Position numbers and translations under genes: made by a program. Under the pieces are notes generated by a model, which was not told where the DNA came from, did not search any database, and was given only the letters and a program-made list of their open reading frames with translations. 64,000 bases of DNA. Origin: Flavobacteriales bacterium. GTDB taxonomy: Bacteria > Bacteroidota > Bacteroidia > Flavobacteriales_D > Sanyastnellaceae. Of the stretch, positions 4,061 through 64,000 are shown one piece after another; the first letter of the stretch is position 1; every line of letters begins with the position of its first letter. Location of the stretch: positions 16,874 through 80,873 of the forward strand of contig JBMYZL010000010.1 in the NCBI GenBank assembly GCA_049610385.1, read 5' to 3'.

Positions 4061-5188
4061 ATGGATTTCAATCGAATGAAACTGCAGGTAAAACAAATGC
4101 TCACCCACTACATACAAGTTTTGTTCTTGGTTCTTCTGGCTGCAGGTTCTTGGTCGGTTGCTCAGGGGCAATCGCTGAGTGACGCAAGCGATATCAATCT
4201 GATGCAGTTTTGGTCGCAAGAACCCAACGGCTGGAGCTACCCGATTGCGATTTCCATTCCAGAAGGTGATCCACCTTTCGGTGGATTTCCAGTGGGCGTG
4301 ATTTTGCATGGGAGCAATGGGAATGGCCCAGCGATGCTCGATCTTGGTGAATCATTGCTTTGGAACCACATTTTGATTGCGCCCACGGGTTATTTGAACT
4401 CTTGGAACCTTTGTGGTGAAAGCAGCGAAGCGCCTGACATCGCGATGTTGGCCGAACTCATCGCACAGCTTTTGACCTTTGACAATGTGAATCCCGAACA
4501 CATTAGACTCATCGGTTTCTCCAATGGTGCAGGATTGGTCAATCAAGGATTTATAGAACTGGATTCCACTGCGATTGATGTGTTTGTGGCCATCGTCTCC
4601 CAAATGAATGAACCTCAATTTCATCAAGGCGCATTTCATCGCCCATCAGGTCTGACCATTCCTCCGATGGCGTTTTGTGGATACGATGAGGTGGTGTTGC
4701 CTCCAATGGGCAGGAAATACCTCTCCATTTGCAACCACAATGACTCTGTTGTGCCTTATGATGGAGGGCCTGCTGTGGGAAATGTTTTTCTTCCTGCAGA
4801 GGTTTCGATTCATCAGGTAGCACTCCAGCAAGGACATGTGGGGCCGCCAGTACCGGGTGAAGATCTGAATGCTCCCGGATTGACGGTGTTTTCATATTTG
4901 GATGGTGATGTCGTCCTCTTGCGCGGAGGGGCTGAACATGGCACGAATCCCGCACAACTGGAATTCGCAGCTGAATTCTTGGCCATAGACGAGTCACCAG
5001 ACCCTCCCACATCTGGATGCATTGAGGATTTGGACAATGACTCTCTCGTTGCAGTAGCGGATGTTTTGTTGCTTTTGGGAGAATTCGGTTGCTCGACTTT
5101 TTGCAATTATGATGTGAACGGTGATGAATGGGTCAACGTTTCAGACCTCCTTCAAATGATATCAGCTTTCGGCACCATTTGCAATTGA
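4061..5188 (+). CDS. Secreted alpha/beta-hydrolase (PHB-depolymerase/LpqC-type esterase) with a C-terminal dockerin-like double EF-hand module
   Basis: Signal peptide (VLFLVLLAAGSWSVAQGQ). VILHGSNGNG and the nucleophile elbow GFSNGAG. The C-terminal 58 aa carry two D-x-N-x-D..V...D.L.L...FG repeats (DLDNDSLVAVADVLLLLGEFG and DVNGDEWVNVSDLLQMISAFG). The start could be one of the downstream in-frame ATGs (4076 or 4097). Confidence 0.65.
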   Translation: MDFNRMKLQVKQMLTHYIQVLFLVLLAAGSWSVAQGQSLSDASDINLMQFWSQEPNGWSYPIAISIPEGDPPFGGFPVGVILHGSNGNGPAMLDLGESLLWNHILIAPTGYLNSWNLCGESSEAPDIAMLAELIAQLLTFDNVNPEHIRLIGFSNGAGLVNQGFIELDSTAIDVFVAIVSQMNEPQFHQGAFHRPSGLTIPPMAFCGYDEVVLPPMGRKYLSICNHNDSVVPYDGGPAVGNVFLPAEVSIHQVALQQGHVGPPVPGEDLNAPGLTVFSYLDGDVVLLRGGAEHGTNPAQLEFAAEFLAIDESPDPPTSGCIEDLDNDSLVAVADVLLLLGEFGCSTFCNYDVNGDEWVNVSDLLQMISAFGTICN

Positions 5189-8939: not shown

Positions 8940-10001
8940 TTAGAATTCCAGGGTGAAAGAGAACCAAGGCACGGGAAAGCCGAATCCATCGCCGATTATG
9001 CCGGCCAAACCGTAATCCCAGAGCCACCCGGTGTTCTTGTTGTAGCTTCTGACGCCCAATGAAATGCCACCACCAGAACTTCTCCACGGCGACGACGTTG
9101 TTGAAATGGGATAGCTGGAATAGTAGGGGGGGCTCAAAATGGAGACTTCATCCCTACGCAAGGATGGCACCACCAAATGATTCTCCGTGATGAGCCAGCG
9201 GTTGGGCGTTAGAGGAAGCATGGCGCTGAGGCTTATCAAGAGCGGGTTTTGCCATACGTCATGTCGTCTTGTAGCCCTGTATTGACGCTGCCAGTATCCG
9301 GGTGGACTCCATGTGGACGCGATGAACGTGGAATCCAATTCGATGTTTGAATAGTAATATCCATCGTCGAATTTGTTCACCAACCCCAAGTTGAGAGTCA
9401 GGTGCTTGTCTTCGTCTCCAAAGGTCACATTCGCAAACCCGAGTACCAGAGGACGATCCAAGATTCCATAGTAGTCCACTGAGGCCAAGCCTCCGATGGA
9501 CATGTGGATGTTTTCACCCACTTGTCCGCCATACTTGGCCGTTACACCGGCGCCCATCACAGAGACCATAAAACCACCTGTGAAACGATTAGAAAATCCG
9601 TAACTGATTGAATTTAAGGCAACATTGGACTGGAAATATCCTTCGCCTTCGGCCAGTTGAAAGCCAGAAGGAGCGAAAAAGTATCGACTGGGTTGATTGC
9701 TCGCATTGATGAATCCTTGACTCAATTCCTTTTCATTGAGTTGGACATCGAGCAATTCTTGAATGAGGTATTTCGGAATGGAAGTGTCGCCCAAACCTGA
9801 AATGTCGATCACAACTTCTTGTTCATTGATGGCGATGAGTCGTCCTATTTTCAAAGTCCCATCATTCAAAGTAATCTGCACAAATTGTGGTTGACTTGAA
9901 TCAGACACATCGGATTGCGCCTCGGTGGTTCCTGTGGTTCCCAAAACAAGGACAATCCAAATCAAAACCAAATTCCAATGGGAGGAAAAGGGTACTTTCA
10001 T
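8940..10001 (-). CDS. Outer-membrane beta-barrel-like hypothetical protein (paralogue of 29727-30632)
   Basis: The ORF track extends to 10247, but the ATG at 10001 gives a normal signal peptide (MKVPFSSHWNLVLIWIVLVLGTTGTTEAQ). It shares SRYFFAPSGFQLAEGEGYFQSN and FANVTFG with the 29727-30632 product. Alternating hydrophobic, Gly/aromatic-rich strands end in an aromatic residue (FSFTLEF). Confidence 0.6.
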   Translation of the reverse strand: MKVPFSSHWNLVLIWIVLVLGTTGTTEAQSDVSDSSQPQFVQITLNDGTLKIGRLIAINEQEVVIDISGLGDTSIPKYLIQELLDVQLNEKELSQGFINASNQPSRYFFAPSGFQLAEGEGYFQSNVALNSISYGFSNRFTGGFMVSVMGAGVTAKYGGQVGENIHMSIGGLASVDYYGILDRPLVLGFANVTFGDEDKHLTLNLGLVNKFDDGYYYSNIELDSTFIASTWSPPGYWQRQYRATRRHDVWQNPLLISLSAMLPLTPNRWLITENHLVVPSLRRDEVSILSPPYYSSYPISTTSSPWRSSGGGISLGVRSYNKNTGWLWDYGLAGIIGDGFGFPVPWFSFTLEF

Positions 10002-51009: not shown

Positions 51010-52200
51010 ATGAGCCATTTATTAGGGACCAAGCAAGTATCATCGATGCTGTTGTGCATCGGATGTTTCAGCACCGCTTTTTGGGCGCAAGTTGATTCGG
51101 TAAGCGTTCAATTTCGGGTCCTCGCCCCAGGGCTTTCTCCGGACAGTTCCGTCTACCTGGCTGGAAGTCCGTCAGCGTGGGGGATTTGGAGACCAGATGG
51201 AGTGAGATTGGGGTATGTTGGTGATGGGGTTTGGGCAGGCCAAGTCAACATGGCTTACCCGCAAACCTTTGAGTACAAGTTCACGCTGGGGCTGTGGTCA
51301 CATGAAGCTCTGGATTCGGAGGGGTTTCCATGGGAAAATCAAACCGCGTCCGTGGCGGAAAATCTGCTGATTGAAGCCCAAATTGACGATTGGCTCGCTG
51401 GCGGGGATCCACCGCGCAGAATCCAAGGGCAGGTGACGGGCCAAGTGGATCGCATAGAAAATTGGGAATGGCCGGGACTCCAACCACGAGATGTCCATGT
51501 CTGGGTCCCTCCGGGTTACACGGAACAACCTGAAATGTTCTGCGATGTGCTGTTCATGCATGATGGACAAAATGTTTTTGATCCTGTGACCAGCAATTTT
51601 GGTGTGGATTGGGGGGTGGACGAAACCTTGGATTCTCTCATCCGCCTTGGACATTTGCATCCAACCCTTCTTGTGACGGCGGACTGCACCGATCATCGGT
51701 CCACGGAATACGCACCGGGGCCGGGTGGGGAAGCTTATTTGGATTGGGTGACAAAAGGGCTCTTGCCCTGGTTGGCTCGGAATTACCGGGTTCATGAAGG
51801 GCCGCTTCACACAACTGTTGCCGGTGCCTCGATGGGGGGACTCATTAGCTTCATGTTGGCAGAACGGCACCCTGAGGCTTTCGGAGCTGCCATTTGCATG
51901 TCCCCGGCTTTTGTCTACAATGGATTGGATTATCCCGAGGTTGTCGGAAGCCGCCCTTGGCCAACAGAAGCTGGATATTTTTACATCGACAATGGCGGGG
52001 TCGGGTTGGAGGAAGTGTTGCAACCGGGTGTCGATCGGATGCGATCTGTTCTAACCGATTTGGGCTTAGATTCAACGGATTTTTCTGTGCAGCAATTCCC
52101 AGAAGGGCATCATTTTGAGGCTGATTGGGGTGCGCGTTTTGGAGATGCGATTCAAGAAACGTCTTCCGCCTTGGACCGGCGAAGAATGAACAACCATTGA
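51010..52200 (+). CDS. Esterase-D/enterochelin-esterase-type alpha/beta-hydrolase with an N-terminal CBM20/48-like beta-sandwich
   Basis: Signal peptide. The N-terminal VQFRVLAPGL..SVYLAGSPSAWGIW......W...V......EYKF pattern resembles a starch-binding-type module. The core has VWVPPGY, LFMHDGQNVFD and the nucleophile elbow GASMGG. Confidence 0.7.
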   Translation: MSHLLGTKQVSSMLLCIGCFSTAFWAQVDSVSVQFRVLAPGLSPDSSVYLAGSPSAWGIWRPDGVRLGYVGDGVWAGQVNMAYPQTFEYKFTLGLWSHEALDSEGFPWENQTASVAENLLIEAQIDDWLAGGDPPRRIQGQVTGQVDRIENWEWPGLQPRDVHVWVPPGYTEQPEMFCDVLFMHDGQNVFDPVTSNFGVDWGVDETLDSLIRLGHLHPTLLVTADCTDHRSTEYAPGPGGEAYLDWVTKGLLPWLARNYRVHEGPLHTTVAGASMGGLISFMLAERHPEAFGAAICMSPAFVYNGLDYPEVVGSRPWPTEAGYFYIDNGGVGLEEVLQPGVDRMRSVLTDLGLDSTDFSVQQFPEGHHFEADWGARFGDAIQETSSALDRRRMNNH

Positions 52201-53372
52201 AAATTGAACAGGGCAAGAATCACAAAAAGAAGGGCTGTGGACTTTCCTGGGAAATGAACTGCAAATAGAATTGAAATCAGAACGTCAGGAATCGGTCCGG
52301 TCAGCGCGTTGGAGATCTTTTGACCATCCCAAACGGCTCCTACCCACCACAGATTCCACAACACCCAAAGGATTCCAGATGCCAACAACGTCGTTGACAG
52401 GGATGCTTCGCCGATGAGAAGCCCCAGAGCCCCCAACAAGGTCAGGGCCCATCGGGTGAGGAGTCCGATGAGCAAGGATTGTGCTGGCATGACCTGAAAT
52501 TTGGGCGCAGCTGGGTCCATGGCAGGGGGGGGAATGACTCCGCCCAACTGCGCAGGGCCCCAACCTGGTGGGGAAAACAAAAACTTCAATTTTGTGGGCA
52601 AGTCTGGCATTTGCTGCATCCCTTGCCAGAGTCGACGCCAAGGTTGCAGTTGAGCCCGGACAGGATTGAACGTCTCTGCAGGAACTGTAATGCCATATGT
52701 GGGCGGTTCGATTTCGGGCTGAAATGTGCCGAAAAGCCGATCCCATACGATGAATACGCCTGCATGGTTTTTGTCGATGTATTCCGGATTCCGTCCATGG
52801 TGAACCCGATGGTGGGAGGGGGTATTCATGATCCATTCCAATGGGCCCAAGTGGCGAATGGATTCGGTGTGAATCCAAAATTGGTAAACCAAATTCACGG
52901 CCATTACACTGGCAAACATCCATGGAGGCAATCCTACCGCCGCCAGCGGCCAATACACCCACATCATCAAGATTTTTTGTGCGGCACTTTGGCGCAAAGC
53001 GACCCCCAAATTGTAGTCTTCGGATTGATGATGGACAACATGACCAATCCAAAACAAATTCACCCGATGTGACCAGCGATGAGCCCAGTAATAGGCGAAA
53101 TCTGACAAAATGAAGGCGGTGGCCCAACCCCAGGCGCTATCAGGCCAATCCCAAGCTCCACGGAATCCTGAGCATGCGGCATGAACTGTCGTGAAGGCTG
53201 TAACCGTGATGATTTTTGCAAAAACACCTGTGGTTTGATCCATGATGCCACAACCCAAATTGGCCAGGGTATCTCCTAGGCGATAGATGCCTTTTTGACC
53301 CCGATGGTCCCAAAACCACTCCACTGTCATCAACAGAAGGAAAACAGGAATGCTGTAAAGAATGATTTCCAT
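52152..53372 (-). CDS. Fatty-acid hydroxylase / sterol-desaturase-family membrane di-iron enzyme with a C-terminal multi-TM extension
   Basis: His boxes HRWSH, HVVHH and HHRVHH, plus NHAGVFIVWDRLFGTF. The ATG at 53372 (MEIILYSIPVFLLL) is preferred over the TTG at 53474. About 130 extra C-terminal residues form 3-4 hydrophobic helices. Confidence 0.8.
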   Translation of the reverse strand: MEIILYSIPVFLLLMTVEWFWDHRGQKGIYRLGDTLANLGCGIMDQTTGVFAKIITVTAFTTVHAACSGFRGAWDWPDSAWGWATAFILSDFAYYWAHRWSHRVNLFWIGHVVHHQSEDYNLGVALRQSAAQKILMMWVYWPLAAVGLPPWMFASVMAVNLVYQFWIHTESIRHLGPLEWIMNTPSHHRVHHGRNPEYIDKNHAGVFIVWDRLFGTFQPEIEPPTYGITVPAETFNPVRAQLQPWRRLWQGMQQMPDLPTKLKFLFSPPGWGPAQLGGVIPPPAMDPAAPKFQVMPAQSLLIGLLTRWALTLLGALGLLIGEASLSTTLLASGILWVLWNLWWVGAVWDGQKISNALTGPIPDVLISILFAVHFPGKSTALLFVILALFNFQWLFILRRSKAEDVS

Positions 53373-53470
53373 GGGGTTCGTCTCAATGTTCCTATCTGGC
53401 AATATATCGCAAGATCGGCGCTCGCGAAATGGTTGACATGGATGATTTTGGCCCACCCCTTGTTGACCGT

Positions 53471-53746
53471 TCAACCGCTGGGCTTCGTGCCTGTGGCCAC
53501 GGATGTTGCGGACGGATTTTGTGGGTGATGGCTGCAGGATTTTCGCAAACGTCGAAAAGCGATGTTGTGAATCTGTCGGGTGCTGAGTGGATCTCCTGCA
53601 TGGTTTTGGAATTCTTGTAGTGCCTCATCGATGACATCACTTCCCGCGCCTGCGGCTTCCAATGAGGCACGCAGTTTTTCAGGGAGAAAAATTTCCACTT
53701 GGCCGTTAGACTTGATCAATTTTGCCGGTTTGGCGAAATCAATCAT
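53471..53746 (-). CDS. Stand-alone ATP-cone domain protein
   Basis: From the ATG at 53746, the sequence LIKSNGQVEIFLPEKLRASLEAAGAGSDVIDEALQEFQNHAGDPLSTRQIHNIAFRRL fits the ATP-cone pattern (K..G..E.F...K...SL...G.......). About 91 aa. It is divergent from the large fusion gene. Confidence 0.55.
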   Translation of the reverse strand: MIDFAKPAKLIKSNGQVEIFLPEKLRASLEAAGAGSDVIDEALQEFQNHAGDPLSTRQIHNIAFRRLRKSCSHHPQNPSATSVATGTKPSG

Positions 53747-53758
53747 TTGGCAAAGGAC

Positions 53759-53766
53759 TAACTTTG
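53759..53766 (+). promoter_or_regulatory. Exact -7 promoter box (TAACTTTG) 5 nt upstream of the ATG of the large fusion gene
   Basis: It matches TAnnTTTG and sits inside the 25-bp space between the divergent start codons at 53746 (-) and 53772 (+). Confidence 0.3.
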
Positions 53767-53771
53767 TTTGG

Positions 53772-56700
53772 ATGTTCAAGGCGCGGAAAGCCGTATTCTG
53801 GATTGCTCTTTTGTGCACGGTGTTGCCCTTGCTTCGTGTATACTGGGTGTTCCTGCAGGAGGCCGAAGCTGGACGCTCTGCTTGGCATGGTTTGTTGCCT
53901 GAGCTGGTCTATGATGTGGAGCTCAACATGGAATTGATGGATGCCGAGGCCTCCAGCACCATGCGCACTTTTTTGCCTGTGAACTCCGAGCGCCAAACTG
54001 TTTTAGAAGAGGCTACCGTCGAAGGACCTGGCGCCGAATCCATTGAGACCTCGGATGCGGGACGGCTGGCCACTTGGTCGGGTAGGAATTTTCCGAATCC
54101 AGCGATGGAAATGTCCGTTCGCCACCGGTTTCGCATGCGGATGCAGACCTTGGTTGTGGACTTGTCAACCTTACCGGATGAAATCGGACGTGTTCGTCCC
54201 TCACATCGGGTCCATTTGGAACCCACAGATGTGGTGCAATCCGCGTCAGAAGAGATTCGGGATCGATTGATTTCTTTGGGGGCGCTTTCGGACACCCTGA
54301 CGCTTTTGAATCGATTGGATTTGGTTTTTGAAGATGTCCAGGGACTTCGGAAGGCACCGTTCAAGGGAACGACTGACGCGTTGACAGCCTTGCGCTTGGG
54401 TGAGGCATCGTGCAATGGGCGGAGCCGGTTGATGGTGGCCATGCTTCGCCACCTGGGTGTTCCTGCCCGGTTGGTCGGGGGGCTGATTCTTGAAGGTGGT
54501 ACCAAACAAACGAGTCACCAATGGTTGGAAGCCCACCTTGGGGGACATTGGGTTCCATTTGATGCGCTCAACGGCCATTTTGGAATGCTACCGGCGAATT
54601 ACTTGAAATTGTACCTCGGAGATGAGGGCCTGTTTCGGCATTCAGCAGGTCTTCCTTTCAATTACAGTTTCACCATTTCGTCGCGATTGGCCGTTCCTGT
54701 GGAAGGCCTCAATTCGCATCGACTTTGGCGCGCGTTTGACGCTGCAGGCATTCCTGTGTCATTGTTGCAGTTCCTTTTGCTGCTCCCCATTGGGGCCGTG
54801 GTTGTAGCGGTGTTGCGGAATGTGGCTGGGGCCAAAACATTCGGCTTGTTCCTCCCGGCATTGTTGGCCGTTTCCATGCGAGAAACAGGGTTTCTTCTGG
54901 GTTCCATGGCCTTTGTACTGGTGATTGGTTTGGTGGCTGCATTGCATCCTTTGCTGGAGCGTTGGCGGTTGATGTATACCCCGAAGCTGGTCATTTTGCT
55001 CGTGGCTGTTGTGGGATTGTTTTTGGGGATCAGCGCATGGGGGGTTCAAGCGGGAGAGGTAGAATTTGCCTACATCACCCTATTTCCCATTGTCATTGTT
55101 GCCATTGCTGCGGAAAGATTTGCGCGAAAATGGGAGGAGTGGGGAGCGATGGATGCGCTGTCAACCGCATTCCAAACGATGCTGGTTGTGGCTGTAGCCT
55201 ATTGGGTCATGGGGTCTCTGACCTTGGAAGCTGCGTTTTTGGCGTTTCCGGAGTTGTTTTTAGTCCTGGTGGGATGGATGTTGTTGCTGGGTCGATGGAC
55301 GGGGGTGCGTTTGTCCGAATGGCATCGATTTCGACGCGTGGAGGGAAATTTGTTGGGGATGAACGCTCGGAATGTCTTGGGGGTGTTCCGACACAATTCT
55401 GCACGTGCGATTGCTTTGGCCAATGATAAAATTGGGACCAAAAAAGCCCTTCAAGAGGCTGGGGTTCCGGTTTCACCCATGCTCGGCGTTTTCCCGACTG
55501 TTTTGAGTTTGCAAGGACTGCGTTCGGTGCTGGATCGCCCGGTGGCCTTGAAACCAGCGGCTGGACGCGGCGGTGGAGGCATTTTGTTGTTGATTCCAAC
55601 AGGACATCACACGTGGTGCAACATCCATGGGGGGGAGGTGACTTGGGAGGAGATCAATCAGCATGCCACTGAAGTGATTCATGGCCGGTTTTCATTTGGG
55701 GATGAAGACCAATTGTTGGTCGAGGAAATGTTGGAGCCCGCGCCTGAAATTCTGGAGCTTCACGGAGAGGGTGTGGCTGATTTTCGATTCATTTTTGAGC
55801 GAGGAAAATTGTTGATGGCCATGTTGCGATTGCCCACCAAGGCTTCACATGGCAAGGCCAATTTGCATGCAGGAGGTGTGGGTGTGGCGATTGATTTGGA
55901 ATCCGGAATATTGGGCAAAGTGGTGGGTCCCTCCTGGGTGGATGCCCACCATCCTGATGGTCCGTTGGTGGAAGGAAAGAAAGTCCCAGATTGGCCTGCT
56001 CTTCTCCGGGTTGCGGAGGCATCTGCAGCCATTTCTCCCTTGGGGTTTGTCGGGGTAGATTTGGTGTTGGACAAGCGATTGGGCCCTGTAGTTCTGGAAT
56101 GGAATGCACGACCAGGATTGGAAATTCAAAATGTGCATGGAAAGTCCCTCTTGTTGTCACAATTGGATCCAGAAAAAGGCGTTCCCATGCCATGGCGAAT
56201 TCTGGGTTTTACATGCGCTTTGGCGGGTTTGATTCTGTTTTCAGACCAAACCTTGTTGTCGGAATGGAACAAAACGGCTGAAGAGACTTGGGTGGTGGGA
56301 GATGTCAGACTTCAGGAAAACCAATGGCAATGGGCTGAGGATATGGAAGGTGAGTCCCGTTCAGCACCGGGATGGAATCCCGAAGATCCATTGGTGAACT
56401 TGGCCTTGGAGGCAGAAGACCGGAAATCTTGGTCTCGGGCGCTTGAAATTTGGTTTCAGTTGGCAGACTTATATCCCGAAGCAGCCGTTCCATGGAATGG
56501 AGTGGCTCGTGCCCATTTCCGGATGCAATCTTGGGAAAAAGCATTGAGGGCATATGACGAAGCGATAGCTCGTGATAGTCTGAGCCATCTGGCTTGGGTC
56601 AACAGTGGCATTGCAGCGAGTCAACTGCAACGCCACAAGTCAGCTACGGCGAGATATCGGCGTGCCCAGGCCATCGCTCCGAATCGCATGAGTGCATGGT

Positions 56701-58472
56701 TGAATGAGGGGATTGCATGGGTGAGGGCTGGGGAATTTGCTCAAGCATTGGTACCGCTGAACCATGCGGAAGAGAGAACCACAGGTGCACGTCTGGCGAG
56801 TGTGTTGGTCTACAAGGGGCAGGCATTGTCCAAATTGAATCAATTTGCCGCTGCGAGACAGGCTTTTGAGGAAGCCATTTCACTGAATCCTGACTCTGAA
56901 TTGGCGCGCTTGGGTTTGGCGTCTTTGGAGACCAAATGGGAACGGCAAATGGATTTGGTCAATCAGGTGCTGCAATTGAATCCCACGTCATCCATGGCCT
57001 TGTTTGCAAAAGGCCAATTGCTGGTTGATCAGGGTGATTTGAATGGCGGAGAGTTGCTCATGGAACGTGCATTGGATCTCAGTCCAAGAAATGAAGAGGT
57101 GGTGCGGGGGTTGGTTGGTTTTTATTTGGAGATTGGGAAAATCAAGTCTGCTTTGGCCTTGGTGCCACTGGGTGAAGCAGAGGCAGAGTGGATGAATGTC
57201 CTGGGTCCGACAGCTTGGTTCATTCAAGGCCGAATTTTGGCGAAGCAGCAGAATGATTCCGCAGCCGTCAAAGCTTATGAAAAGGCCTTGGCAGGTTCAG
57301 AAGGTGAGATGGCGGAGGCGTGGCTCAATCGCGGGGTTTCACTCCGACGGCTCAAAGAACCCCGCATGGCCATTGCCTCCTATGTCCAGGCGGTGGAACA
57401 GCGAGAATCCTACCCAGAGGCTTGGTACAACATGGCCTTGGGCTATTCCGAGTTGAACCGGATGGATTCGGCCATTTGGGCCTATCAACAATGTCTCGCG
57501 TTGGATCCGGAACGGGTGAACGCGCATTACAATTTGGGTTTATTGTTCAGCGAGTCGGGACAAACAAAAAATGCCATTGCGGCTTGGCGAAAGGCTGTTG
57601 AGTTGGATCCTGGCATGCGGAAAGCTTGGTTCAATTTGGGGGTGAACTTGCGGCGCAGCAACCAGGTTGAGGCGGCTGTGGCTGCGTATGATTCATTGCT
57701 CCTGAGATTTCCAAATGATGAAAGAGCTTGGTACAATCGTGCCATTGCCCTCCGAAATTTGGGACAAAATAAACGCGCCATTCAAAGTTATCGGATGGCC
57801 CTCGAGGCCGATCCTGACTACATCGCAGCATGGATGAATTTGGGCGGGTTGCATGCCGACCAACGGAACTGGGGTGCTGCTGCCCGTGCATACTTAGAGG
57901 CTGTTCATCGCGCTCCTGATGATGCAGAGGCCCGATTCAACCTCGGATTGCAACTGAGGCGATTGAACCGTGAGGACGAGGCGGTTTTGGCGTTTGAACA
58001 ATCGGCACAATTGGACGCCGAATATGATCGGCCTCGGCTGCAATTGTTGGAATTGTATCGAGAGCGAGGAAATGTTAAAGGGTTGTTGCGAATTCAAGAC
58101 GACCAGTTGTCCATGGATTCCTTGTTGTCATGGGGTGGGGATTCGATTTATGAGTACGGTCGCGCCCTTCACCGCGCGGATTTGCAGCGACGTGCCATCA
58201 GCCGATATGCTTTGAGTGAACAGGAGGGCAAAGCAGGAGATTGGCCGATTTATTGGACAGCCAAGGCCTGGGAAGAATTGAATCAACTGGAGGCGGCAAA
58301 CGAGACTTATGGATTGTTGTTGGAACGCAACCAATCGTTCAAATTTGGCCTCTATCGTGGAGCGATGTTGAAAAAGAAATTGGGAGATTTGACTGGGGCC
58401 AATTCACTGTGGCTGCAGTTGGAAGAATTGTACCCTTCTTTTGCAGAGGAAAAATGGAAGGACAAACCGTGA
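53772..58472 (+). CDS. 1,566-aa multidomain membrane protein: TM - transglutaminase-like core - 7TM block - RimK/alpha-L-glutamate-ligase-like ATP-grasp - TM - ~700 aa TPR array
   Basis: The ATG at 53772 (MFKARKAVFWIALLCTVLPLL) is preferred; the ORF-track start at 53580 runs antisense through the ATP-cone gene. The TGase core is LGEASCNGRSRLMVAMLRHLGVPARLV..SHQWLEAHLGGHWVPFDAL (nt ~54342-54614). Seven hydrophobic helices span 54750-55304. The ATP-grasp domain has LGMNARNVLGVFRHN, ALKPAAGRGGGGI, LVEEML and VVLEWNARPGLE (55347-56159). A further TM lies at 56193-56240. Repeated TPR-like W/A/Y..G/A...A....A...P units run to the C-terminus. Confidence 0.8.
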   Translation: MFKARKAVFWIALLCTVLPLLRVYWVFLQEAEAGRSAWHGLLPELVYDVELNMELMDAEASSTMRTFLPVNSERQTVLEEATVEGPGAESIETSDAGRLATWSGRNFPNPAMEMSVRHRFRMRMQTLVVDLSTLPDEIGRVRPSHRVHLEPTDVVQSASEEIRDRLISLGALSDTLTLLNRLDLVFEDVQGLRKAPFKGTTDALTALRLGEASCNGRSRLMVAMLRHLGVPARLVGGLILEGGTKQTSHQWLEAHLGGHWVPFDALNGHFGMLPANYLKLYLGDEGLFRHSAGLPFNYSFTISSRLAVPVEGLNSHRLWRAFDAAGIPVSLLQFLLLLPIGAVVVAVLRNVAGAKTFGLFLPALLAVSMRETGFLLGSMAFVLVIGLVAALHPLLERWRLMYTPKLVILLVAVVGLFLGISAWGVQAGEVEFAYITLFPIVIVAIAAERFARKWEEWGAMDALSTAFQTMLVVAVAYWVMGSLTLEAAFLAFPELFLVLVGWMLLLGRWTGVRLSEWHRFRRVEGNLLGMNARNVLGVFRHNSARAIALANDKIGTKKALQEAGVPVSPMLGVFPTVLSLQGLRSVLDRPVALKPAAGRGGGGILLLIPTGHHTWCNIHGGEVTWEEINQHATEVIHGRFSFGDEDQLLVEEMLEPAPEILELHGEGVADFRFIFERGKLLMAMLRLPTKASHGKANLHAGGVGVAIDLESGILGKVVGPSWVDAHHPDGPLVEGKKVPDWPALLRVAEASAAISPLGFVGVDLVLDKRLGPVVLEWNARPGLEIQNVHGKSLLLSQLDPEKGVPMPWRILGFTCALAGLILFSDQTLLSEWNKTAEETWVVGDVRLQENQWQWAEDMEGESRSAPGWNPEDPLVNLALEAEDRKSWSRALEIWFQLADLYPEAAVPWNGVARAHFRMQSWEKALRAYDEAIARDSLSHLAWVNSGIAASQLQRHKSATARYRRAQAIAPNRMSAWLNEGIAWVRAGEFAQALVPLNHAEERTTGARLASVLVYKGQALSKLNQFAAARQAFEEAISLNPDSELARLGLASLETKWERQMDLVNQVLQLNPTSSMALFAKGQLLVDQGDLNGGELLMERALDLSPRNEEVVRGLVGFYLEIGKIKSALALVPLGEAEAEWMNVLGPTAWFIQGRILAKQQNDSAAVKAYEKALAGSEGEMAEAWLNRGVSLRRLKEPRMAIASYVQAVEQRESYPEAWYNMALGYSELNRMDSAIWAYQQCLALDPERVNAHYNLGLLFSESGQTKNAIAAWRKAVELDPGMRKAWFNLGVNLRRSNQVEAAVAAYDSLLLRFPNDERAWYNRAIALRNLGQNKRAIQSYRMALEADPDYIAAWMNLGGLHADQRNWGAAARAYLEAVHRAPDDAEARFNLGLQLRRLNREDEAVLAFEQSAQLDAEYDRPRLQLLELYRERGNVKGLLRIQDDQLSMDSLLSWGGDSIYEYGRALHRADLQRRAISRYALSEQEGKAGDWPIYWTAKAWEELNQLEAANETYGLLLERNQSFKFGLYRGAMLKKKLGDLTGANSLWLQLEELYPSFAEEKWKDKP

Positions 58473-59728
58473 AATGCAATCGGATCTCGGCTGCCTTGTG
58501 CCTGCTGGCTGGGCCTTGGATGGCGCACGTGTCAGGACAATCTTGGGAGCAAGATGTGGAGTTGGGTTGGTTGAGCGGATTGGAGTGGAATGTATTTCAT
58601 TCTCCCAGCTCGTATCGAGACAATTTGGGGGTGGATATTCCTGTTGATTCCTTGATATTGGATGACAGGCTCTCCATCGGTCGCATGGAATTGGACTGGG
58701 AACGTGATGACGATCAAGGGCGATGGAAAATCAATTCAGACGTTTCTTTTTCTCGCTACAACACCCTAACTGCAGCGAACCGCAAATCTTTGGAAGGACG
58801 AATCACCCGAGAACATGCGCTCAATGACCGCATTGAGGGGGCCATTGGGATTCGACTTCGCGATGAGACGCGGCTGGGCATCAACATTTTGGGTGATGAA
58901 TTGCTGACTTCTTTCAGTTTTTTTCAGGCCCAATTGGAGGCAGATTTGAACGCACAGGTCCGATCGGATATGGAGTTGGAATTGTCTTGGGAGTTGTTCA
59001 GGAAATGGTACGATCAGCGAGCTACAGGGGAATCTTTGGATCAAACTGAATGGTCCATAGAATTGGGGTGGTCATGGGAGCCAGAACGTCGGGTGAAAGG
59101 GCTGCGTGATTTAGATCTGGTTGGGCAAAAGCGAACTGATCCACTGGGTGAATTAACAGCCGACTTTCAACACCGTCAAAAAAATTATGCGAACTGGCTC
59201 AATTTGGATATTCTGGATGAGAGTCGAGATCCTTTGTTGCCTACGCCATTTATGCCTTTTGACTCAACTTTCGCACACCCCTTGCGGACATGGACTTACA
59301 CAACGGCCACTGTTCGATATGCACTGCCTGAATGGCGTGGCTGGGAGGTACGCGTGGATTTTCGTGCGCAAAAACGTTCAGACTTGAGCCTTGGTGATTT
59401 TGGGTACCGCGATGCCAAATCGGCCATAAGAATTGGTCACGAGGGAGATGAATTGGAGTTGACCAGCTCATTGTCATACACCTGGCGGGAGTATACGGAT
59501 CGGTTGGCAGAGCAAATCACACCCACCCCTTATCCCCTTCTGAAATACAATTATTTGCGTCTGGATTTGAAGGCTGAGTACAGATTGCGGAAGGGCTTGT
59601 TGTTGCTGGGTTTGATCGACTTCACCCAGCGAAGTTCCAACACCACAGCCGTGGATCGAAGAACGCGTCGAGCTTATCAAACCGGATCCATCCTCATCGG
59701 GTTGAGCGCAGAGTTCAATTCGCCTTAG
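58454..59728 (+). CDS. Outer-membrane beta-barrel hypothetical protein, translationally coupled to the fusion gene
   Basis: The start is the ATG at 58454 (19-nt overlap) or the GTG at 58469 (GTGA overlap with the stop at 58470-58472). Signal peptide [19 protein letters not shown]. Long alternating polar/hydrophobic strands rich in R/D/E/W/Y. No family recognised. Confidence 0.6.
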
Positions 59729-59738
59729 TTTCGCACTC

Positions 59739-60995
59739 ATGGGAATATTGATCAGCCTCTTCGGCATGGTGGCCTTGATGGGCGCCGGCTGGTTGTTGTC
59801 GTCCAGTCGCAAATCCATTCGTTGGAGAACGGTTTTGGGCGCCTTTGCGATTCAATTCGGTTTCGGTGCCTTTGTGCTTTATGTGCCCTGGGGCAAGCGG
59901 GCATTGCAAGCGACTTCTGAGGCCGTCAACCAAGTCATTCAATATGGCCAGGATGGGATTGACTTCATGTTTGGTGCCTTGGCTTCGGATCAGATGTCCG
60001 AGATTTTTTCAGGAGGTGGATTCGTTTTCGCATTTCAAGTGTTGCCGATCATCATCTTTTTTTCTTCCCTCATCTCCGTGCTTTACTACATCGGCGTCAT
60101 GCAGTGGGTGATTCAATTGTTGGGGGGCGGTTTGCGCTGGTTGTTGGGCACTTCTCGTGCGGAGTCAATGTCCGCAACTGCGAACATTTTTGTCGGTCAG
60201 ACAGAGGCCCCGTTGGTGGTCAAGCCCTTCATCGCGGGGATGACGCAGAGTGAGTTGTTTGCCATCATGGTGGGTGGATTGGCGTCTGTCGCGGGTTCCG
60301 TTTTGGTGGGTTACGCCTCGTTGGGGGTTCCTGTTCCATATTTGATTGCGGCCTCGTTCATGGCTGCGCCAGGGGGGTTGTTGTTTGCCAAATTGATTCG
60401 CCCGGAAGTTGAGTCCCCGAGGGAGGATTTGAAACTTGCAGAGGAAGAAGAAGAGGAAGCTGCGGTGAATGTCATTGATGCGGCCGCCAAGGGGGCGGCT
60501 TCAGGAGTTCAGTTGGCCTTCAATGTCGGGGCCATGTTGTTGGCATTTGTAGGAATCATTGCCTTGATGAATGGATTGATTGGGGGTATTGGCGGGTGGT
60601 TTGGCCAAGAGAACTGGTCCTTGGAAGCAGGTCTGGGTTACCTTTTTGCTCCGGTTGCATTCCTCATTGGCGTGCCTTGGTCTGAGGCCATCATTGCGGG
60701 TTCATTTATTGGGCAGAAGTTCATCGTCAATGAATTTGTGGCCTACTTGAATTTTTCACCCTATCTCGCGGAGGATGCTGTGGTGGAGCTGTCTGAGAAG
60801 ACGAAGGCCATCATTTCCTTCGCCTTGTGTGGCTTTGCCAATTTGTCTTCCATTGCCATTTTGTTGGGTGGCATTGGTTCTTTGGCACCATCTCGACGCT
60901 CTGACATTGCGCGTTACGGCATGATGGCCGTGATCGCAGCCACATTATCGAACCTCATGTCGGCGACAATCGCTGGCTTTTTCCTGAGCCTGTGA
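59739..60995 (+). CDS. nupC: NupC/CNT-family nucleoside transporter
   Basis: A multi-TM protein with the characteristic N-terminal R.I.WRTV..G...QF.F..FVL and the central [15 protein letters not shown] motif. About 418 aa. Confidence 0.85.
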
Positions 60996-62281
60996 TGACA
61001 TCGCTTTCATCATCCTTGTTGCCTGCTGAGGTCATTCGGCGTAAGCGAGATGGAGAAGTGCTTTCTGCTGAAATCCTCGGTGATTTCATCCGTGGGGTCG
61101 TCACGCAGGAAGTGAGCGACGCTCAAATCGCAGCTTTTTCCATGGCCACCTATTTCAAGGGCCTGAATCCGGAGGAGAGAACGGCCATCACCCGCGCCAT
61201 GGCGCATTCAGGAACGGTGCTGCAATGGGATTCGGAGCAACTGGGGGGGCCAGTCCTGGACAAACATTCCACGGGCGGTGTGGGTGATACGGTCTCCTTG
61301 TTGTTGGCCCCATTGCTGGCCGCTGTGGGCGGTTATGTGCCCATGATCGCTGGAAGGGGCCTGGCGCATACTGGTGGTACCATTGATAAGTTGGAGAGCA
61401 TCCCGGGCTACAACGTACAGGTGGAACTGTCCTCATTCCAGTCCATTGTCGCACGACATGGATTTTCCATTTGTGGTCAGACAGCGAATTTGGCGCCCGC
61501 CGACGCACGCATGTATGCCACGCGCGATGTAACCGCCACGGTAGAACAAAATGGACTGATTACGGCATCGATTCTGTCCAAGAAACTCGCGGCAGGTCTG
61601 CAATGTCTGACGATGGACATCAAGACAGGGTCAGGCGCCTTCATGCGCACGCGTGCTGAAGCGGAATCTTTGGCCGAAGTGATTTGCGAAGTGGGCAATG
61701 CTGCTGGGATGGACACCCAAGCTGTCATTACAGACATGTCTGAGCCGTTGGCGGAATCAGCAGGAAATGCGCTCGAGGTGAGAGAAGCAGTTGAAATCCT
61801 TCGAGGTGAGCGCAAGGATGGGGGTCTTTTGGAAGTGACCATGGATTTGGCCCAGCGAATGTGCATTCAATCGGGGCTTCCGGAAAAGAGGCTCTTACAG
61901 GCCCTGCAATCCGGAGCTGCCATGGAGTGTTTTTCCAAAGTCATCCATGAGATGGGCGGACCCGTGGACTTTTGCGACCGCTTGGATTATTATCTCCCCA
62001 TGGCGCCAATTGTTCGACCTGTGTTTGCCAAACTCGGAGCGAAGGGTGTCATTGGACAGGTAGATACTAGGGAATTGGGCATGGCTGTGGTGGATTTGGG
62101 AGGAGGAAGACGGCGAACTGGAGACACCATTGACTCTCGGGTGGGATGCGTGGACTGGGCGCGCCTGGGCGATTCAATGGACAAGCCTTTGGCGGTGATT
62201 CACGCTGCAGATGAGGCATCTTTCGGGCGTGCCGCCCAACGGATTCAAAATGCATATCAACACAAGCAAGGCGATGGTTAA
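60992..62281 (+). CDS. deoA: Thymidine (pyrimidine-nucleoside) phosphorylase
   Basis: IRRKRDG..LS..EI..F, AAFSMA, the [10 protein letters not shown] signature and [23 protein letters not shown] overlap with nupC. Confidence 0.85.
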
Positions 62282-63056
62282 GGTCAAGGTTTTTGATTCC
62301 AAAGGGTTGAAGGACAAGCCGCGGACAGCCATTGAAGTGGAGTCGTTTGAGGCTGGGGAGTTTCACCGGTTGGTTCAATCCCGGAGAAGTGTCCGGATAT
62401 ACACCTCAGATGAGATCCCAGAAGATGTGGTTCGGCGGGTGCAACATTCTGCGTTGTTGGCACCGACCTCCAGCAATTTGCAAACCACCGAAATTCACTG
62501 GGTGAGGGGGGAGAAAAAGCGCGAGGAGCTGGTTTCCGCCTGCTTGGACCAGCCTGCAGCTGCGACGTCCCGAGAGTTGTTTGTGGTTGTGGCTCGGCCG
62601 GACTTGTGGAAGCGGAACAACAACTGGATGATTTCGCACTTGGAATCAGACCCAGCCACCCCAGAGCGGGCTTTGCAATACTTCAAAAAAATCACGCGCT
62701 TGGTTTACACCCTCGGGCCATGGGGGATTTTGGGGCCAATCAAACGGGTTTGGCTGTTTTTACGCGGCCTACAGAAAGCCACACCACGTGAGCCCGTCAG
62801 CTTGGCGCAATTGGAAACTTGGGCGCAAAAAACAGCGGCTTTGGCTTCAGCGCATTTCATGTTGGGCATGCGGGCTGAAGGCTTTGACACATGTCCCATG
62901 GAGGGGATGGATTCAAAGCGGGTGAAAAAAATCCTTGGTTTGCCAACTTCCGCGTGCATCAACATGGTGATTTCAGCAGGAAAGCGTGCCGAAGGAGGTG
63001 TTTACGGACCGAGATTCAGGTTTGATTCAGCATATTTTCTGATTGATCACGATTGA
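62274..63056 (+). CDS. Nitroreductase-family protein
   Basis: The ATG at 62274 overlaps the deoA stop by 8 nt. RRSVRIYTSDEIPEDVVRRVQHSALLAPTSSNLQ matches the nitroreductase N-terminal FMN-binding motif (RRS.R.....P......I...A..APS..N.Q). Confidence 0.7.
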   Translation: MVKVKVFDSKGLKDKPRTAIEVESFEAGEFHRLVQSRRSVRIYTSDEIPEDVVRRVQHSALLAPTSSNLQTTEIHWVRGEKKREELVSACLDQPAAATSRELFVVVARPDLWKRNNNWMISHLESDPATPERALQYFKKITRLVYTLGPWGILGPIKRVWLFLRGLQKATPREPVSLAQLETWAQKTAALASAHFMLGMRAEGFDTCPMEGMDSKRVKKILGLPTSACINMVISAGKRAEGGVYGPRFRFDSAYFLIDHD

Positions 63057-63060
63057 ATCT

Positions 63061-64000
63061 TCATTCCGCGCGGATGCGCAGAATTTTGATTTGATGACCC
63101 TGTTCATCGCGCCAGAAGTAGGTGCCTGCCGGCAAATTGGACAAGTCCAGAACCAATGCATCGCCTTGGGCGGTTGCCATGTCTGATTGCACGACTTGTC
63201 CGTTGGTGCTCAACAATTGCCAGGAGCCTCTTTCCGAAGGGACGGTTTGTTGCAATTCCACAATGCCTGTTGTCGGATTGGGAAAGGCCACCAAAGAAGA
63301 AGCTGAGATTTCGTCGAATCCTGCAGTGAGGTCGTTGAAGTGAATGTAGTCCGTGTACTCCAATTCGTCATCGGCCATCATGTGAAATTCGCAGGGTAAA
63401 GTGCCATCCCATCCTGTGGCATCCATGGATGGGGGTGTGATGAGCACTGTGAATCGTTCTCCAGGGTAGATTTTCAGTGTATCCAGGGGGAGTGCTTCGG
63501 GCAAGGGGCGCCCATCTGACATGACTGCAGTGGCGTTCAGTTCGGCCGGGAAGAGAATATCCATTCGTGAATAGGCCATGGAAGCCAGTCGCAAGGCCAA
63601 TGTTTCGCCTGGTGAATAGGGAATCACAGCCTCCGGCGTGGTCAATTGACTCCCCATCAAACCATTGATCATGAAATAGTTGGGCCTAATGTCATGAAAT
63701 GGAAAGGCACCTGTGGGATTCAGGTTTGTGGCAATCTCCAAATCACTGAACAAGAAAGGGTGAATGGCGTCCGGAACGGCCCCACCTTCGTACAAACTTC
63801 CATCTGGTCGATTGACGACGAACATGCCATACATCCCCATGGTCAAATGAAGGGTGGTTGTGACATGACAATGGTACAAGAAAGTGCCGGAATGATCCGC
63901 CCGAAACTTGTAAATCGCTGTGGAGTCTGTGGGGACATAAAATGACGTTGAAGGCACACCATCATGGGCTTGACTGACGTCAAGACCATGCAGGTGAATG
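63061..64000 (-). CDS. Multicopper oxidase (C-terminal part; 5' end beyond the window) with T9SS type-A C-terminal domain
   Basis: The frame stays open upstream of the GTG at 63957 to the window edge and encodes ..IHLHGLDVSQAHDG.. (an HxHG copper motif). Downstream is LYHCHVTTTLHLTMGM (an HCH...H...M type-1/trinuclear copper motif with unusual spacing). The tail is LVAFPNPTTGIVEL...GTYFW...ILRIRAE. Confidence 0.75.
   Translation of the reverse strand, partial: IHLHGLDVSQAHDGVPSTSFYVPTDSTAIYKFRADHSGTFLYHCHVTTTLHLTMGMYGMFVVNRPDGSLYEGGAVPDAIHPFLFSDLEIATNLNPTGAFPFHDIRPNYFMINGLMGSQLTTPEAVIPYSPGETLALRLASMAYSRMDILFPAELNATAVMSDGRPLPEALPLDTLKIYPGERFTVLITPPSMDATGWDGTLPCEFHMMADDELEYTDYIHFNDLTAGFDEISASSLVAFPNPTTGIVELQQTVPSERGSWQLLSTNGQVVQSDMATAQGDALVLDLSNLPAGTYFWRDEQGHQIKILRIRAE

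Follow-up and report, generated by a model that had tools for sequence, protein, structure and literature searches.

A transglutaminase-like, seven-transmembrane, ATP-grasp and tetratricopeptide fusion protein of Flavobacteriales as a rare variant of a widespread RloBC-type envelope operon

We analysed a stretch of 64,000 nucleotides from a Flavobacteriales bacterium (assembly GCA_049610385.1, contig JBMYZL010000010.1, positions 16,874 to 80,873), referred to here as the window, and concentrated on one long gene within it. This gene encodes a protein in which a transglutaminase (TGase)-like head, a seven-transmembrane (7TM) domain, an ATP-grasp domain and an array of tetratricopeptide repeats (TPR) follow one another in a single reading frame. 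It overlaps the gene of a predicted outer-membrane beta-barrel, and a short open reading frame (ORF) resembling an ATP-cone is transcribed divergently from it. A first-pass annotation, made from the sequence alone, had presented these genes as a candidate envelope-spanning peptide-ligase system with the ATP-cone gene as one of its parts. Our analysis supports that proposal in part: the observation itself is confirmed and the envelope-spanning design appears right, the role given to the ATP-cone gene was wrong, and the isolation of the system was overstated. The locus is a lineage-specific fusion of the first three genes of a widespread four-gene envelope operon, with the fourth, the barrel gene, translationally coupled to it.

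The fused gene, its predicted protein and the overlapping barrel

The uninterrupted ORF of 1,566 codons is confirmed. Its maximal frame runs from 53580 to 58472, and the ATG at 53772 is sound as the start because homologues begin at the equivalent position. Pfam searches recovered the anticipated domains above their gathering cut-offs: Transglut_core (PF01841) at amino acids (aa) 192-265 with 54.7 bits (cut-off 23), 7TM_transglut (PF14402) at aa 331-523 with 142.1 bits (cut-off 25) and ATPgrasp_ST (PF14397) at aa 540-794 with 147.4 bits (cut-off 31.4), and many TPR families densely match the region from about aa 885 to 1450. The NCBIfam model TIGR02291 (alpha-L-glutamate ligase-like), which had been anticipated as well, stays below its threshold with 187.8 bits against 314.2. 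Also below threshold is the NCBIfam model of RloB, a 7TM protein of Pseudomonas aeruginosa discussed below (NF052267, inact_TG_RloB), which is matched over model positions 177-504 of 508 with 148.9 bits against a cut-off of 900. An orthologue encoded by separate genes (locus L003) reaches 98 bits with the same model. On these scores the window protein is a homologue of RloB and not an equivalog.

A 19-residue hydropathy scan finds nine transmembrane helices (Table 1): the N-terminal anchor, seven in the 7TM domain and one ahead of the TPR array. Lysine and arginine are concentrated at the N-terminus and in alternate loops, those predicted to be cytoplasmic, and this distribution places the ATP-grasp domain on the cytoplasmic side of the inner membrane and both the TGase-like head and the TPR array beyond it. 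The topology previously deduced from one plus seven helices is therefore retained as a prediction, with the ligase cytoplasmic and the Cys-His head and TPR array periplasmic. The last helix, predicted to return the chain to the periplasm, corresponds to the anchor with which the separate TPR protein of relatives begins; in the junction alignment, the PW motif that precedes the helix is conserved in fused and split forms alike. An AlphaFold model of residues 1-870 has a mean predicted local distance difference test (pLDDT) score of 87 and a predicted TM-score (pTM) of 0.78.

The three triad positions of the head are all occupied, as had been noticed from the sequence. Cys214 (TGC, 54411-54413), His249 (54516-54518) and Asp264 (54561-54563) align residue-for-residue with the Cys, His and Asp of 3ISR, a transglutaminase-like cysteine protease of Cytophaga hutchinsonii, and the AlphaFold head matches the whole 3ISR chain with a Foldseek TM-score of 0.66-0.69. 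The triad loss implied by the word "inactive" in the Pfam and RloB descriptions is thus contradicted in the window protein. We extended the comparison to 211 family members, comprising the window protein, 91 loci and 119 database proteins. All 211 have the Cys and the His, while at the third position 169 have Asp, 23 have Cys and 19 have Gly. Since both Cys and His are kept in every member, the label "inactive transglutaminase" does not fit the TPR-linked family; judged by this alignment, the universal retention of the pair is an unusual trait of the family as a whole. The members with Cys or Gly at the third position belong mostly to Myxococcota, Acidobacteriota and some Gammaproteobacteria (for example L046, L068, L060, P0052 and P0097).

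For the ATP-grasp domain, sequence comparisons with the PDB and Foldseek comparisons identify RimK (5ZCT, 7QYS, 4IWX), LysX/ArgX and cyanophycin synthetase as the nearest solved structures, and Foldseek searches with the AlphaFold model support the fold. The ATP- and Mg-binding residues K594, D763, E776 and N778 are invariant in alignment A2 and at least 90% conserved in alignment A4.

The barrel gene begins either at ATG 58454 or at GTG 58469, which gives an overlap of 19 or 4 nucleotides (nt) with the fused gene up to the end of its stop codon (58470-58472), in line with the overlap of 4-19 nt described before. The N-terminus of its product resembles a signal peptide. Its C-terminus, ...LSAEFNSP, carries a Phe three residues before the end, an only approximate version of the aromatic beta-signal. 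The AlphaFold model, built on an alignment of 15 sequences, has a mean pLDDT of 76, a pTM of 0.73 and at least 16 long antiparallel strands. All of its top 50 Foldseek matches are outer-membrane barrels or barrel-containing complexes, among them FadL, porins, OmpG, CymA and chitoporin, with PelBC at rank 50; because these matches are generic, no porin subfamily can be assigned. Fifteen relatives of the barrel are present in the database. With a signal peptide, a modelled barrel fold and an approximate beta-signal, the 424-aa protein has the features predicted for an outer-membrane beta-barrel.

The TPR proteins of L001, L003 and L006 and the window protein end in a conserved tail, YP(S/E/T)FA(E/A)EK (58431-58469 in the window, the last 13 codons). 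This tail, directly before the overlapping barrel start, could be a candidate docking motif for the barrel.

A lineage-specific fusion of a widespread four-gene operon

The closest database proteins to the window protein are TGase-7TM proteins of about 520 aa (45-55% identity) from Flavobacteriales and other Bacteroidota. On the contigs of these relatives we find four genes that overlap at their ends and encode a TGase-7TM protein (517-529 aa), an ATP-grasp protein (272-287 aa), a transmembrane-TPR protein (753-757 aa) and a product of 401-424 aa that carries no annotation. The first three add up to about 520 + 285 + 757 = about 1,562 aa, which is the size of the window protein. The split operon is present in Sanyastnella coralliicola (4.1-Mb record CP132543.1) and in many metagenome-assembled genomes (MAGs).

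Scanning one genome for each GTDB species yielded 80 loci. We coded the modules as A (TGase-7TM), B (ATP-grasp), C (transmembrane-TPR) and D (barrel) and scored the fusion state by tblastn. Among 90 fetched loci, A, B and C are separate in 66, and A and B are separate in another 19 on contigs too short for C. A single locus, from Catenovulum, joins A and B and continues with a TPR gene and a barrel homologue, and four loci join A, B and C. In about 85 related genomes from several phyla the parts are encoded by separate genes that overlap. The TPR- and barrel-linked form spans Bacteroidota, Calditrichota, Myxococcota, Acidobacteriota, Spirochaetota and Gammaproteobacteria, so that the view of these modules as adjacent genes mainly of Proteobacteria does not hold for it.

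Distant barrels were found with a hidden Markov model (HMM) that we ran for three iterations against the ORFs of the fetched loci. Barrel homologues occur in 65 of 92 loci, including those of Myxococcota, Spirochaetota, Calditrichota and Gammaproteobacteria, and in almost every such locus the homologue follows the TPR gene on the same strand. The neighbourhood whose conservation the first-pass annotation proposed to test is therefore conserved across phyla for the ligase parts and the barrel; the ATP-cone gene does not extend beyond the fused clade. In Myxococcota loci an extra YfiO/BamD-like TPR protein of 320-355 aa is encoded between the long TPR gene and the barrel gene.

The triple fusion is not a chimera of frameshifted genes. 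It recurs in L007 (a Flavobacteriales MAG, 1,572 aa), L089 (1,557 aa), L092 (1,556 aa) and L088. The last of these, from a different sequencing run and sample, aligns to window positions 54107-59815 without a gap and differs at 14 positions (99.755% identity), covering both junctions. The other three keep a single frame at 58-62% aa identity to the window protein. The fused proteins are mutually 58-75% identical over about 1,555 aa and share the conserved linkers RFRRV-EG-x-LGMNARN and ...PW followed by the transmembrane helix. Divergence in the same frame with conserved linkers, together with the gapless match of L088, excludes assembly error and pseudogene decay as far as the data allow.

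We then compared the protein with 1.84 billion representatives clustered at 50% identity. At E <= 1e-30, 624 representatives match, and the triple fusion is found in exactly one of all the representatives, P0136 (1,558 aa, 57% identity). The fusion is confined to one small clade of uncultured Flavobacteriales and is a derived state. The window does not hold a new kind of system; what is unusual in it is the triple fusion only. The claim that nothing described resembles the system is accordingly withdrawn, in view of both the widespread split operon and the homology to RloB and RloC considered below.

Other combinations of the modules have also been joined. Fusions of A and B (about 810 aa) form dozens of clusters, and P0217 and P0230 join the ATP-grasp domain to the transmembrane helix and TPR (about 1,040 aa). 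P0206 and P0216 are 7TM-ATP-grasp fusions that lack the TGase head, and P0234 (1,422 aa) carries a prenyltransferase-type alpha/alpha toroid in front of the 7TM and ATP-grasp domains. This range of fusions and partners indicates a constant core of 7TM and ATP-grasp, a variable head, and TPR and barrel as frequent partners. Independent fusions in every combination further argue that the ligase, the 7TM domain and the TPR act as one physical complex.

Flanking genes and the truncated ATP-cone ORF

The distance of 25 bp between the divergent start codons is confirmed, and in the four fused loci the spacer measures 25-26 bp. The divergent ORF scores 25.1 bits with the ATP-cone model (PF03477, cut-off 25.8) over profile positions 3-70 of 88. 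In L007, L092 and L089 the gene at the same place encodes 275-278 aa, with an ATP-cone followed by an Mrr-type PD-(D/E)xK nuclease domain; a full-length relative scores 23.1 bits with Mrr_cat, above the cut-off of 21, and 21.4 bits with the ATP-cone model. In the window copy the resemblance to these proteins stops at about residue 70; the 21 residues that follow are unrelated and are encoded antisense to a probable relic of another gene (Table 1).

That relic matches a 352-aa secreted protein which, in L007, is encoded between the cone gene and a fatty-acid hydroxylase gene. A weak collinear blastn match joins window positions 53508-53541 to L007 8042-8075. Comparison of window positions 53373-53771 with L007 7577-10000 reveals about 1.7 kb missing, plus a further 0.3 kb or so. 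The missing 1.7 kb carries the Mrr nuclease domain, a 135-aa secreted gene with a GC-type dockerin-like domain and most of the 352-aa gene. The matches that mark this scar are individually weak (E = 0.004, 0.08 and 0.27) and are collinear. None of the 88 other fetched loci has the cone-Mrr gene. Because the ORF is truncated and absent from those loci, we consider it a decayed neighbour specific to the clade and not, as first proposed, a component of the system.

We also considered and rejected the two secreted proteins of 352 and 135 aa as core components, because both are limited to the nearest Flavobacteriales clade and their genes have been lost by deletion from the window. A defence-system reading of the ATP-cone and Mrr gene was set aside too, with only weak PADLOC matches. 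The C-terminus of the 135-aa protein has a counterpart elsewhere in the window, where the ORF at 4061-5188 ends in a dockerin/EF-hand-like domain (5003-5185) with 49% identity over 63 aa; this match indicates that the genome uses the domain again in a different secreted protein. Next to the scar (52152-53372, minus strand) lies the gene of a fatty-acid hydroxylase family protein that is extended at its C-terminus by a long hydrophobic stretch. As in L007, the gene probably starts at the ATG at 53372 and not at the TTG at 53474, which would overlap the ATP-cone ORF.

Immediately before the fused gene lies TAACTTTG, a putative Bacteroidota -7 promoter element. L007 has the counterpart TAATTTTG at the same place (9988-9995). 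The arrangement suggests a leaderless or near-leaderless transcript, with promoters inside the neighbouring coding sequence. A sigma-70 promoter and terminator scan was uninformative, returning fewer sites than shuffled sequence, and its model is unsuited to Bacteroidota.

Downstream of the barrel gene the fused clade shares a syntenic block of genes for a NupC-type nucleoside transporter, a thymidine phosphorylase, a nitroreductase and a multicopper oxidase. In the window nupC begins 10 nt past the barrel stop codon, and read-through transcription into it is possible. In the split-operon relatives other genes replace the block from nupC to the multicopper oxidase.

Table 1 Features of the locus and of related loci (window coordinates unless a locus is named).
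Feature	Position	Strand	Evidence
Fused gene: transmembrane helix, TGase-like head, 7TM, ATP-grasp, transmembrane helix, TPR (RloB-like + RloC-like + TPR)	53772..58472	+	ORF call, Pfam, NCBIfam, fused orthologues
N-terminal membrane anchor, aa 8-26, with predicted cytoplasmic MFKARKA before it	53793..53849	+	hydropathy, positive-inside count, AlphaFold2 helix 2-33
Predicted periplasmic transglutaminase-like (papain-fold) head, aa 27-328	53850..54755	+	Pfam Transglut_core, 3ISR alignment, Foldseek
7TM_transglut seven-helix membrane domain, aa 329-506	54756..55289	+	Pfam, seven hydropathy peaks, AlphaFold2 helices with pLDDT about 90
Predicted cytoplasmic RimK-like ATP-grasp amidoligase domain (ATPgrasp_ST / TIGR02291-like), aa 526-794	55347..56153	+	Pfam, NCBIfam, nearest structures
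Ninth membrane helix overall (eighth after the TGase head), aa 806-826	56187..56249	+	hydropathy, junction alignment
Predicted periplasmic TPR array, aa 827-1566 (about 740 aa), with C-terminal YPxFAxEK motif	56250..58472	+	Pfam TPR families, homology to split transmembrane-TPR proteins
Predicted 424-aa outer-membrane beta-barrel with signal peptide	58454..59728	+	sequence, AlphaFold2, Foldseek
TAACTTTG, fits the Bacteroidota -7 element TAnnTTTG, 5-6 nt before the fused-gene ATG	53758..53765	+	sequence
Truncated 91-aa ATP-cone ORF, left over from an ATP-cone + Mrr-like nuclease gene	53746..53471	-	Pfam, full-length homologues
Probable relic of the 352-aa secreted-protein gene (residues 117-145), deletion-scar marker	53460..53546	+	tblastn 48% over 29 aa, E = 0.004
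Syntenic downstream block	window 59739-63957; L007 15982-20291; L089 6685-11151
YfiO/BamD-like TPR gene, Myxococcota	L068 14307-15329; L078 14311-15378; L055 14268-15233

Proposed function, alternatives and comparison with known systems

The first two modules of the window protein are, by sequence comparison, distant relatives of RloB and RloC, encoded in the P. aeruginosa operon rloABC named by Lormand et al. (mBio 2025, PMC12239564). In that system RloA, a secreted retropepsin-like protease, cleaves polyglutamate in vitro, RloB is described as an "inactive transglutaminase" 7TM protein, and RloC, which is a cytoplasmic ATP-grasp protein, shares 24% identity with RimK (PMC12239564). Loss of all three RloA paralogues (RloA1-3) is lethal at low osmolarity, and deletion of rloB or rloC suppresses this lethality (PMC12239564), which suggests that in Pseudomonas a product reaches the periplasm, and that the product or action of RloB and RloC does harm once the periplasmic polyglutamate-cleaving proteases are lost. 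The same study reports RloB matches that are 96% proteobacterial and leaves TPR partners unmentioned (PMC12239564). Separately, a screen in Shewanella vesiculosa found that disruption of a TGase-7TM gene raises membrane-vesicle output (PMC12096838). Literature searches on the Pfam and TIGR families, on alpha-L-glutamate ligase-like proteins and on the Rlo names returned nothing relevant beyond these two papers.

Based on these comparisons, the best reading, to which we give a probability of roughly 0.55, is that the cytoplasmic RimK-like ligase makes an amino-acid polymer or adduct that the 7TM domain, the Cys-His head, the TPR array and the barrel handle or export. The ATP-grasp domain, using ATP, would add amino acids to a cytoplasmic substrate, the likeliest product being an acidic, alpha-linked chain such as RimK makes. 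The 7TM domain, which is fused to the ligase or adjoins it family-wide, would then move the product across the inner membrane, where the transglutaminase/papain-like head would cut it or transfer it onto an acceptor. Finally, the TPR solenoid would pass the product on and the outer-membrane barrel would display or release it, much as AlgK/AlgE, PgaA, BcsC and PelBC act as TPR and barrel pairs in synthase-dependent exopolysaccharide secretion. The earlier suggestion that the unit could span both membranes is supported, as an idea, by the predicted topology and the barrel partner. In a bolder version, which we offer tentatively and which could well be wrong, the cassette may be a hitherto unrecognised pathway, present across many diderm phyla, that would build a non-ribosomal poly-amino-acid such as poly-alpha-glutamate in the cytoplasm, thread it through a dedicated 7TM translocon and secrete it or attach it covalently at the surface through a TPR-guided porin, with the TGase as periplasmic transamidase or release enzyme.

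Several points weigh against polymer export. The export step is drawn by analogy, and the top Foldseek matches hold no counterpart of the 7TM domain that would mark it as a channel. In 42 of the 211 family members Cys or Gly replaces the Asp of the triad, and this may leave room for a non-catalytic role of the head. The barrel finds no sequence match in the PDB, even by profile search, and no Pfam, NCBIfam or PADLOC family; its Foldseek TM-scores are only 0.3-0.45 (about 0.4 for PelBC), a generic likeness. The iterated barrel HMM could drift, although the consistent position of its matches argues against this. TPR matches to the NCBIfam models of PgaA (36.6 bits, cut-off 367), BcsC (24.5 bits, cut-off 858) and PrsT are weak and typical of any TPR protein. 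Lastly, with scores so far below the NCBIfam cut-offs, applying the Pseudomonas genetics to the window protein is an extrapolation.

The alternative that survives best, which we nevertheless consider unlikely, is remodelling of the cell wall or of envelope proteins. Here the head would act on peptidoglycan stem peptides or cross-link envelope proteins, the TPR and barrel would serve as tethers, and the ATP-grasp domain would modify a stem peptide or lipid-linked precursor or gate the head. In rlo mutants cell shape, beta-lactam sensitivity and hypo-osmotic survival are all disturbed, and the authors relate these defects to peptidoglycan (PMC12239564); a BamD/YfiO-like TPR protein is present in the Myxococcota loci. 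D-Ala-D-Ala ligases (Ddl) are also among the Foldseek matches of the ATP-grasp domain, but they are weaker than RimK and LysX. Pfam and NCBIfam searches detected no peptidoglycan-binding domain (LysM, SPOR or PG_binding), and the tight fusion of ligase and 7TM across the family suits the hand-over of a substrate better than an independent wall enzyme.

Slightly less probable still is a transmembrane regulator, in which the TGase-like head and TPR sense an envelope cue such as a fragment of peptidoglycan, an osmotic signal or a partner protein. The 7TM domain would relay the cue and the ATP-grasp domain would modify a cytoplasmic protein, so that nothing crosses the membrane. RimK, the closest solved ATP-grasp enzyme, does act on a cytoplasmic protein through polyglutamylation of S6. 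The head varies as a sensor would, being absent in some members and an alpha/alpha toroid elsewhere, TPR arrays are protein-binding modules, and in Vibrio cholerae the rlo genes lie within an envelope-stress regulon (PMC12239564). A regulator leaves the strict conservation of Cys and His unexplained, and likewise the conserved, translationally coupled outer-membrane barrel; the genetic interaction of the periplasmic RloA with RloB and RloC points instead to a periplasmic product. Overall, the invariant Cys-His pair and the coupled barrel suit regulation and remodelling less well than they suit export.

It is very improbable that the divergent ATP-cone protein senses nucleotides and regulates the system: the divergent layout is kept in the four fused loci, but the intact gene is an ATP-cone with an Mrr-like nuclease, it is missing from all 88 other fetched loci, and the window copy has lost everything past about residue 70 and falls below the Pfam cut-off. 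An artefact, in which an assembly or sequencing error or a decaying pseudogene has joined three genes by frameshifts, is hardly credible: nearly all relatives do have three separate genes in three different frames, but an independent assembly agrees without a gap over 5.7 kb and three diverged orthologues keep one frame with conserved linkers.

RloB and RloC strongly affect antibiotic tolerance, biofilm formation and osmotic-stress survival in P. aeruginosa. The occurrence of the core with a periplasmic TPR protein across phyla, and with a barrel gene next to it in most loci that are long enough, suggests that the product leaves the cytoplasm and may leave the cell as well. A supposedly dead transglutaminase that keeps Cys and His throughout its family becomes a candidate enzyme. 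As an extreme natural fusion, the 1,566-aa protein provides Rosetta-stone evidence for a single complex and a single chain handy for structural work, and the split operons of the named isolates Sanyastnella coralliicola and Catenovulum sp. SM1970 may offer workable genetic hosts. If the poly-amino-acid version were true, the system would be a peptide counterpart of synthase-dependent polysaccharide secretion. The Rlo phenotypes would then be explained by the same polymer trapped in the periplasm, with RloA needed to clear it. The locus itself is a rare triple-fusion variant of a widespread TPR- and barrel-linked branch of RloBC-type systems, which are clinically relevant in Pseudomonas.

Among known systems RloB/RloC is the closest. 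The order of the modules is the same, a periplasmic TGase-like head on 7TM_transglut followed by a RimK-related cytoplasmic ATP-grasp domain, and the layout predicted for RloB and RloC (PMC12239564) equals the predicted topology of the window protein. The window protein differs in scoring far below the equivalog cut-offs (149 against 900 and 188 against 314 bits), in belonging to a family with a transmembrane-TPR protein and an outer-membrane barrel as conserved partners, in the retention of Cys and His across that family although the head of RloB is named "inactive", and in the joining of three genes as one. In the annotated related loci no Zn_protease (retropepsin-like) Pfam match adjoins the operon. 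The RloA-like motif D[TS]GA..[ST], which makes a weak test, is absent from the six-frame translation of the window and from the plausible ORFs of 92 loci.

The association of 7TM, inactive-TGase and ATP-grasp amidoligase domains was reportedly predicted from comparative genomics by Iyer, Abhiman, Burroughs and Aravind in 2009, said to be the source of PF14402 and PF14397. The window carries the same Pfam families in the same association, but the Pfam name calls the head inactive whereas Cys and His are invariant in the window family. With RimK, which acts with RimB as a poly-alpha-L-glutamate ligase on ribosomal protein S6, the window protein shares the closest ATP-grasp fold and the ATP- and Mg-binding residues. 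In contrast, RimK is soluble, has no membrane domain and no TPR or barrel partner, and the sequence similarity is weak (E about 3e-4).

The synthase-dependent exopolysaccharide secretion systems AlgK/AlgE, PgaA, BcsC and PelB/PelC similarly encode three components in one operon: an enzyme that polymerises in the cytoplasm or at the inner membrane, a TPR scaffold in the periplasm and a beta-barrel in the outer membrane, the last two fused in some of them. The system described here lacks a glycosyltransferase, and the polymerising enzyme would be an ATP-grasp amidoligase. This is a likeness of layout and not homology, the similarity of barrel and TPR is generic, and the window system is not a member of this group. 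In Bacillus, CapBCA couples an ATP-dependent amide ligase to membrane partners that export poly-gamma-glutamate, and the extracytoplasmic transpeptidase CapD anchors the polymer. The anchoring by CapD parallels the role proposed here for the Cys-His head. The folds, however, are unrelated (Mur-ligase-like CapB and the gamma-glutamyltranspeptidase CapD), and the Cap system works in a monoderm host without TPR or barrel.

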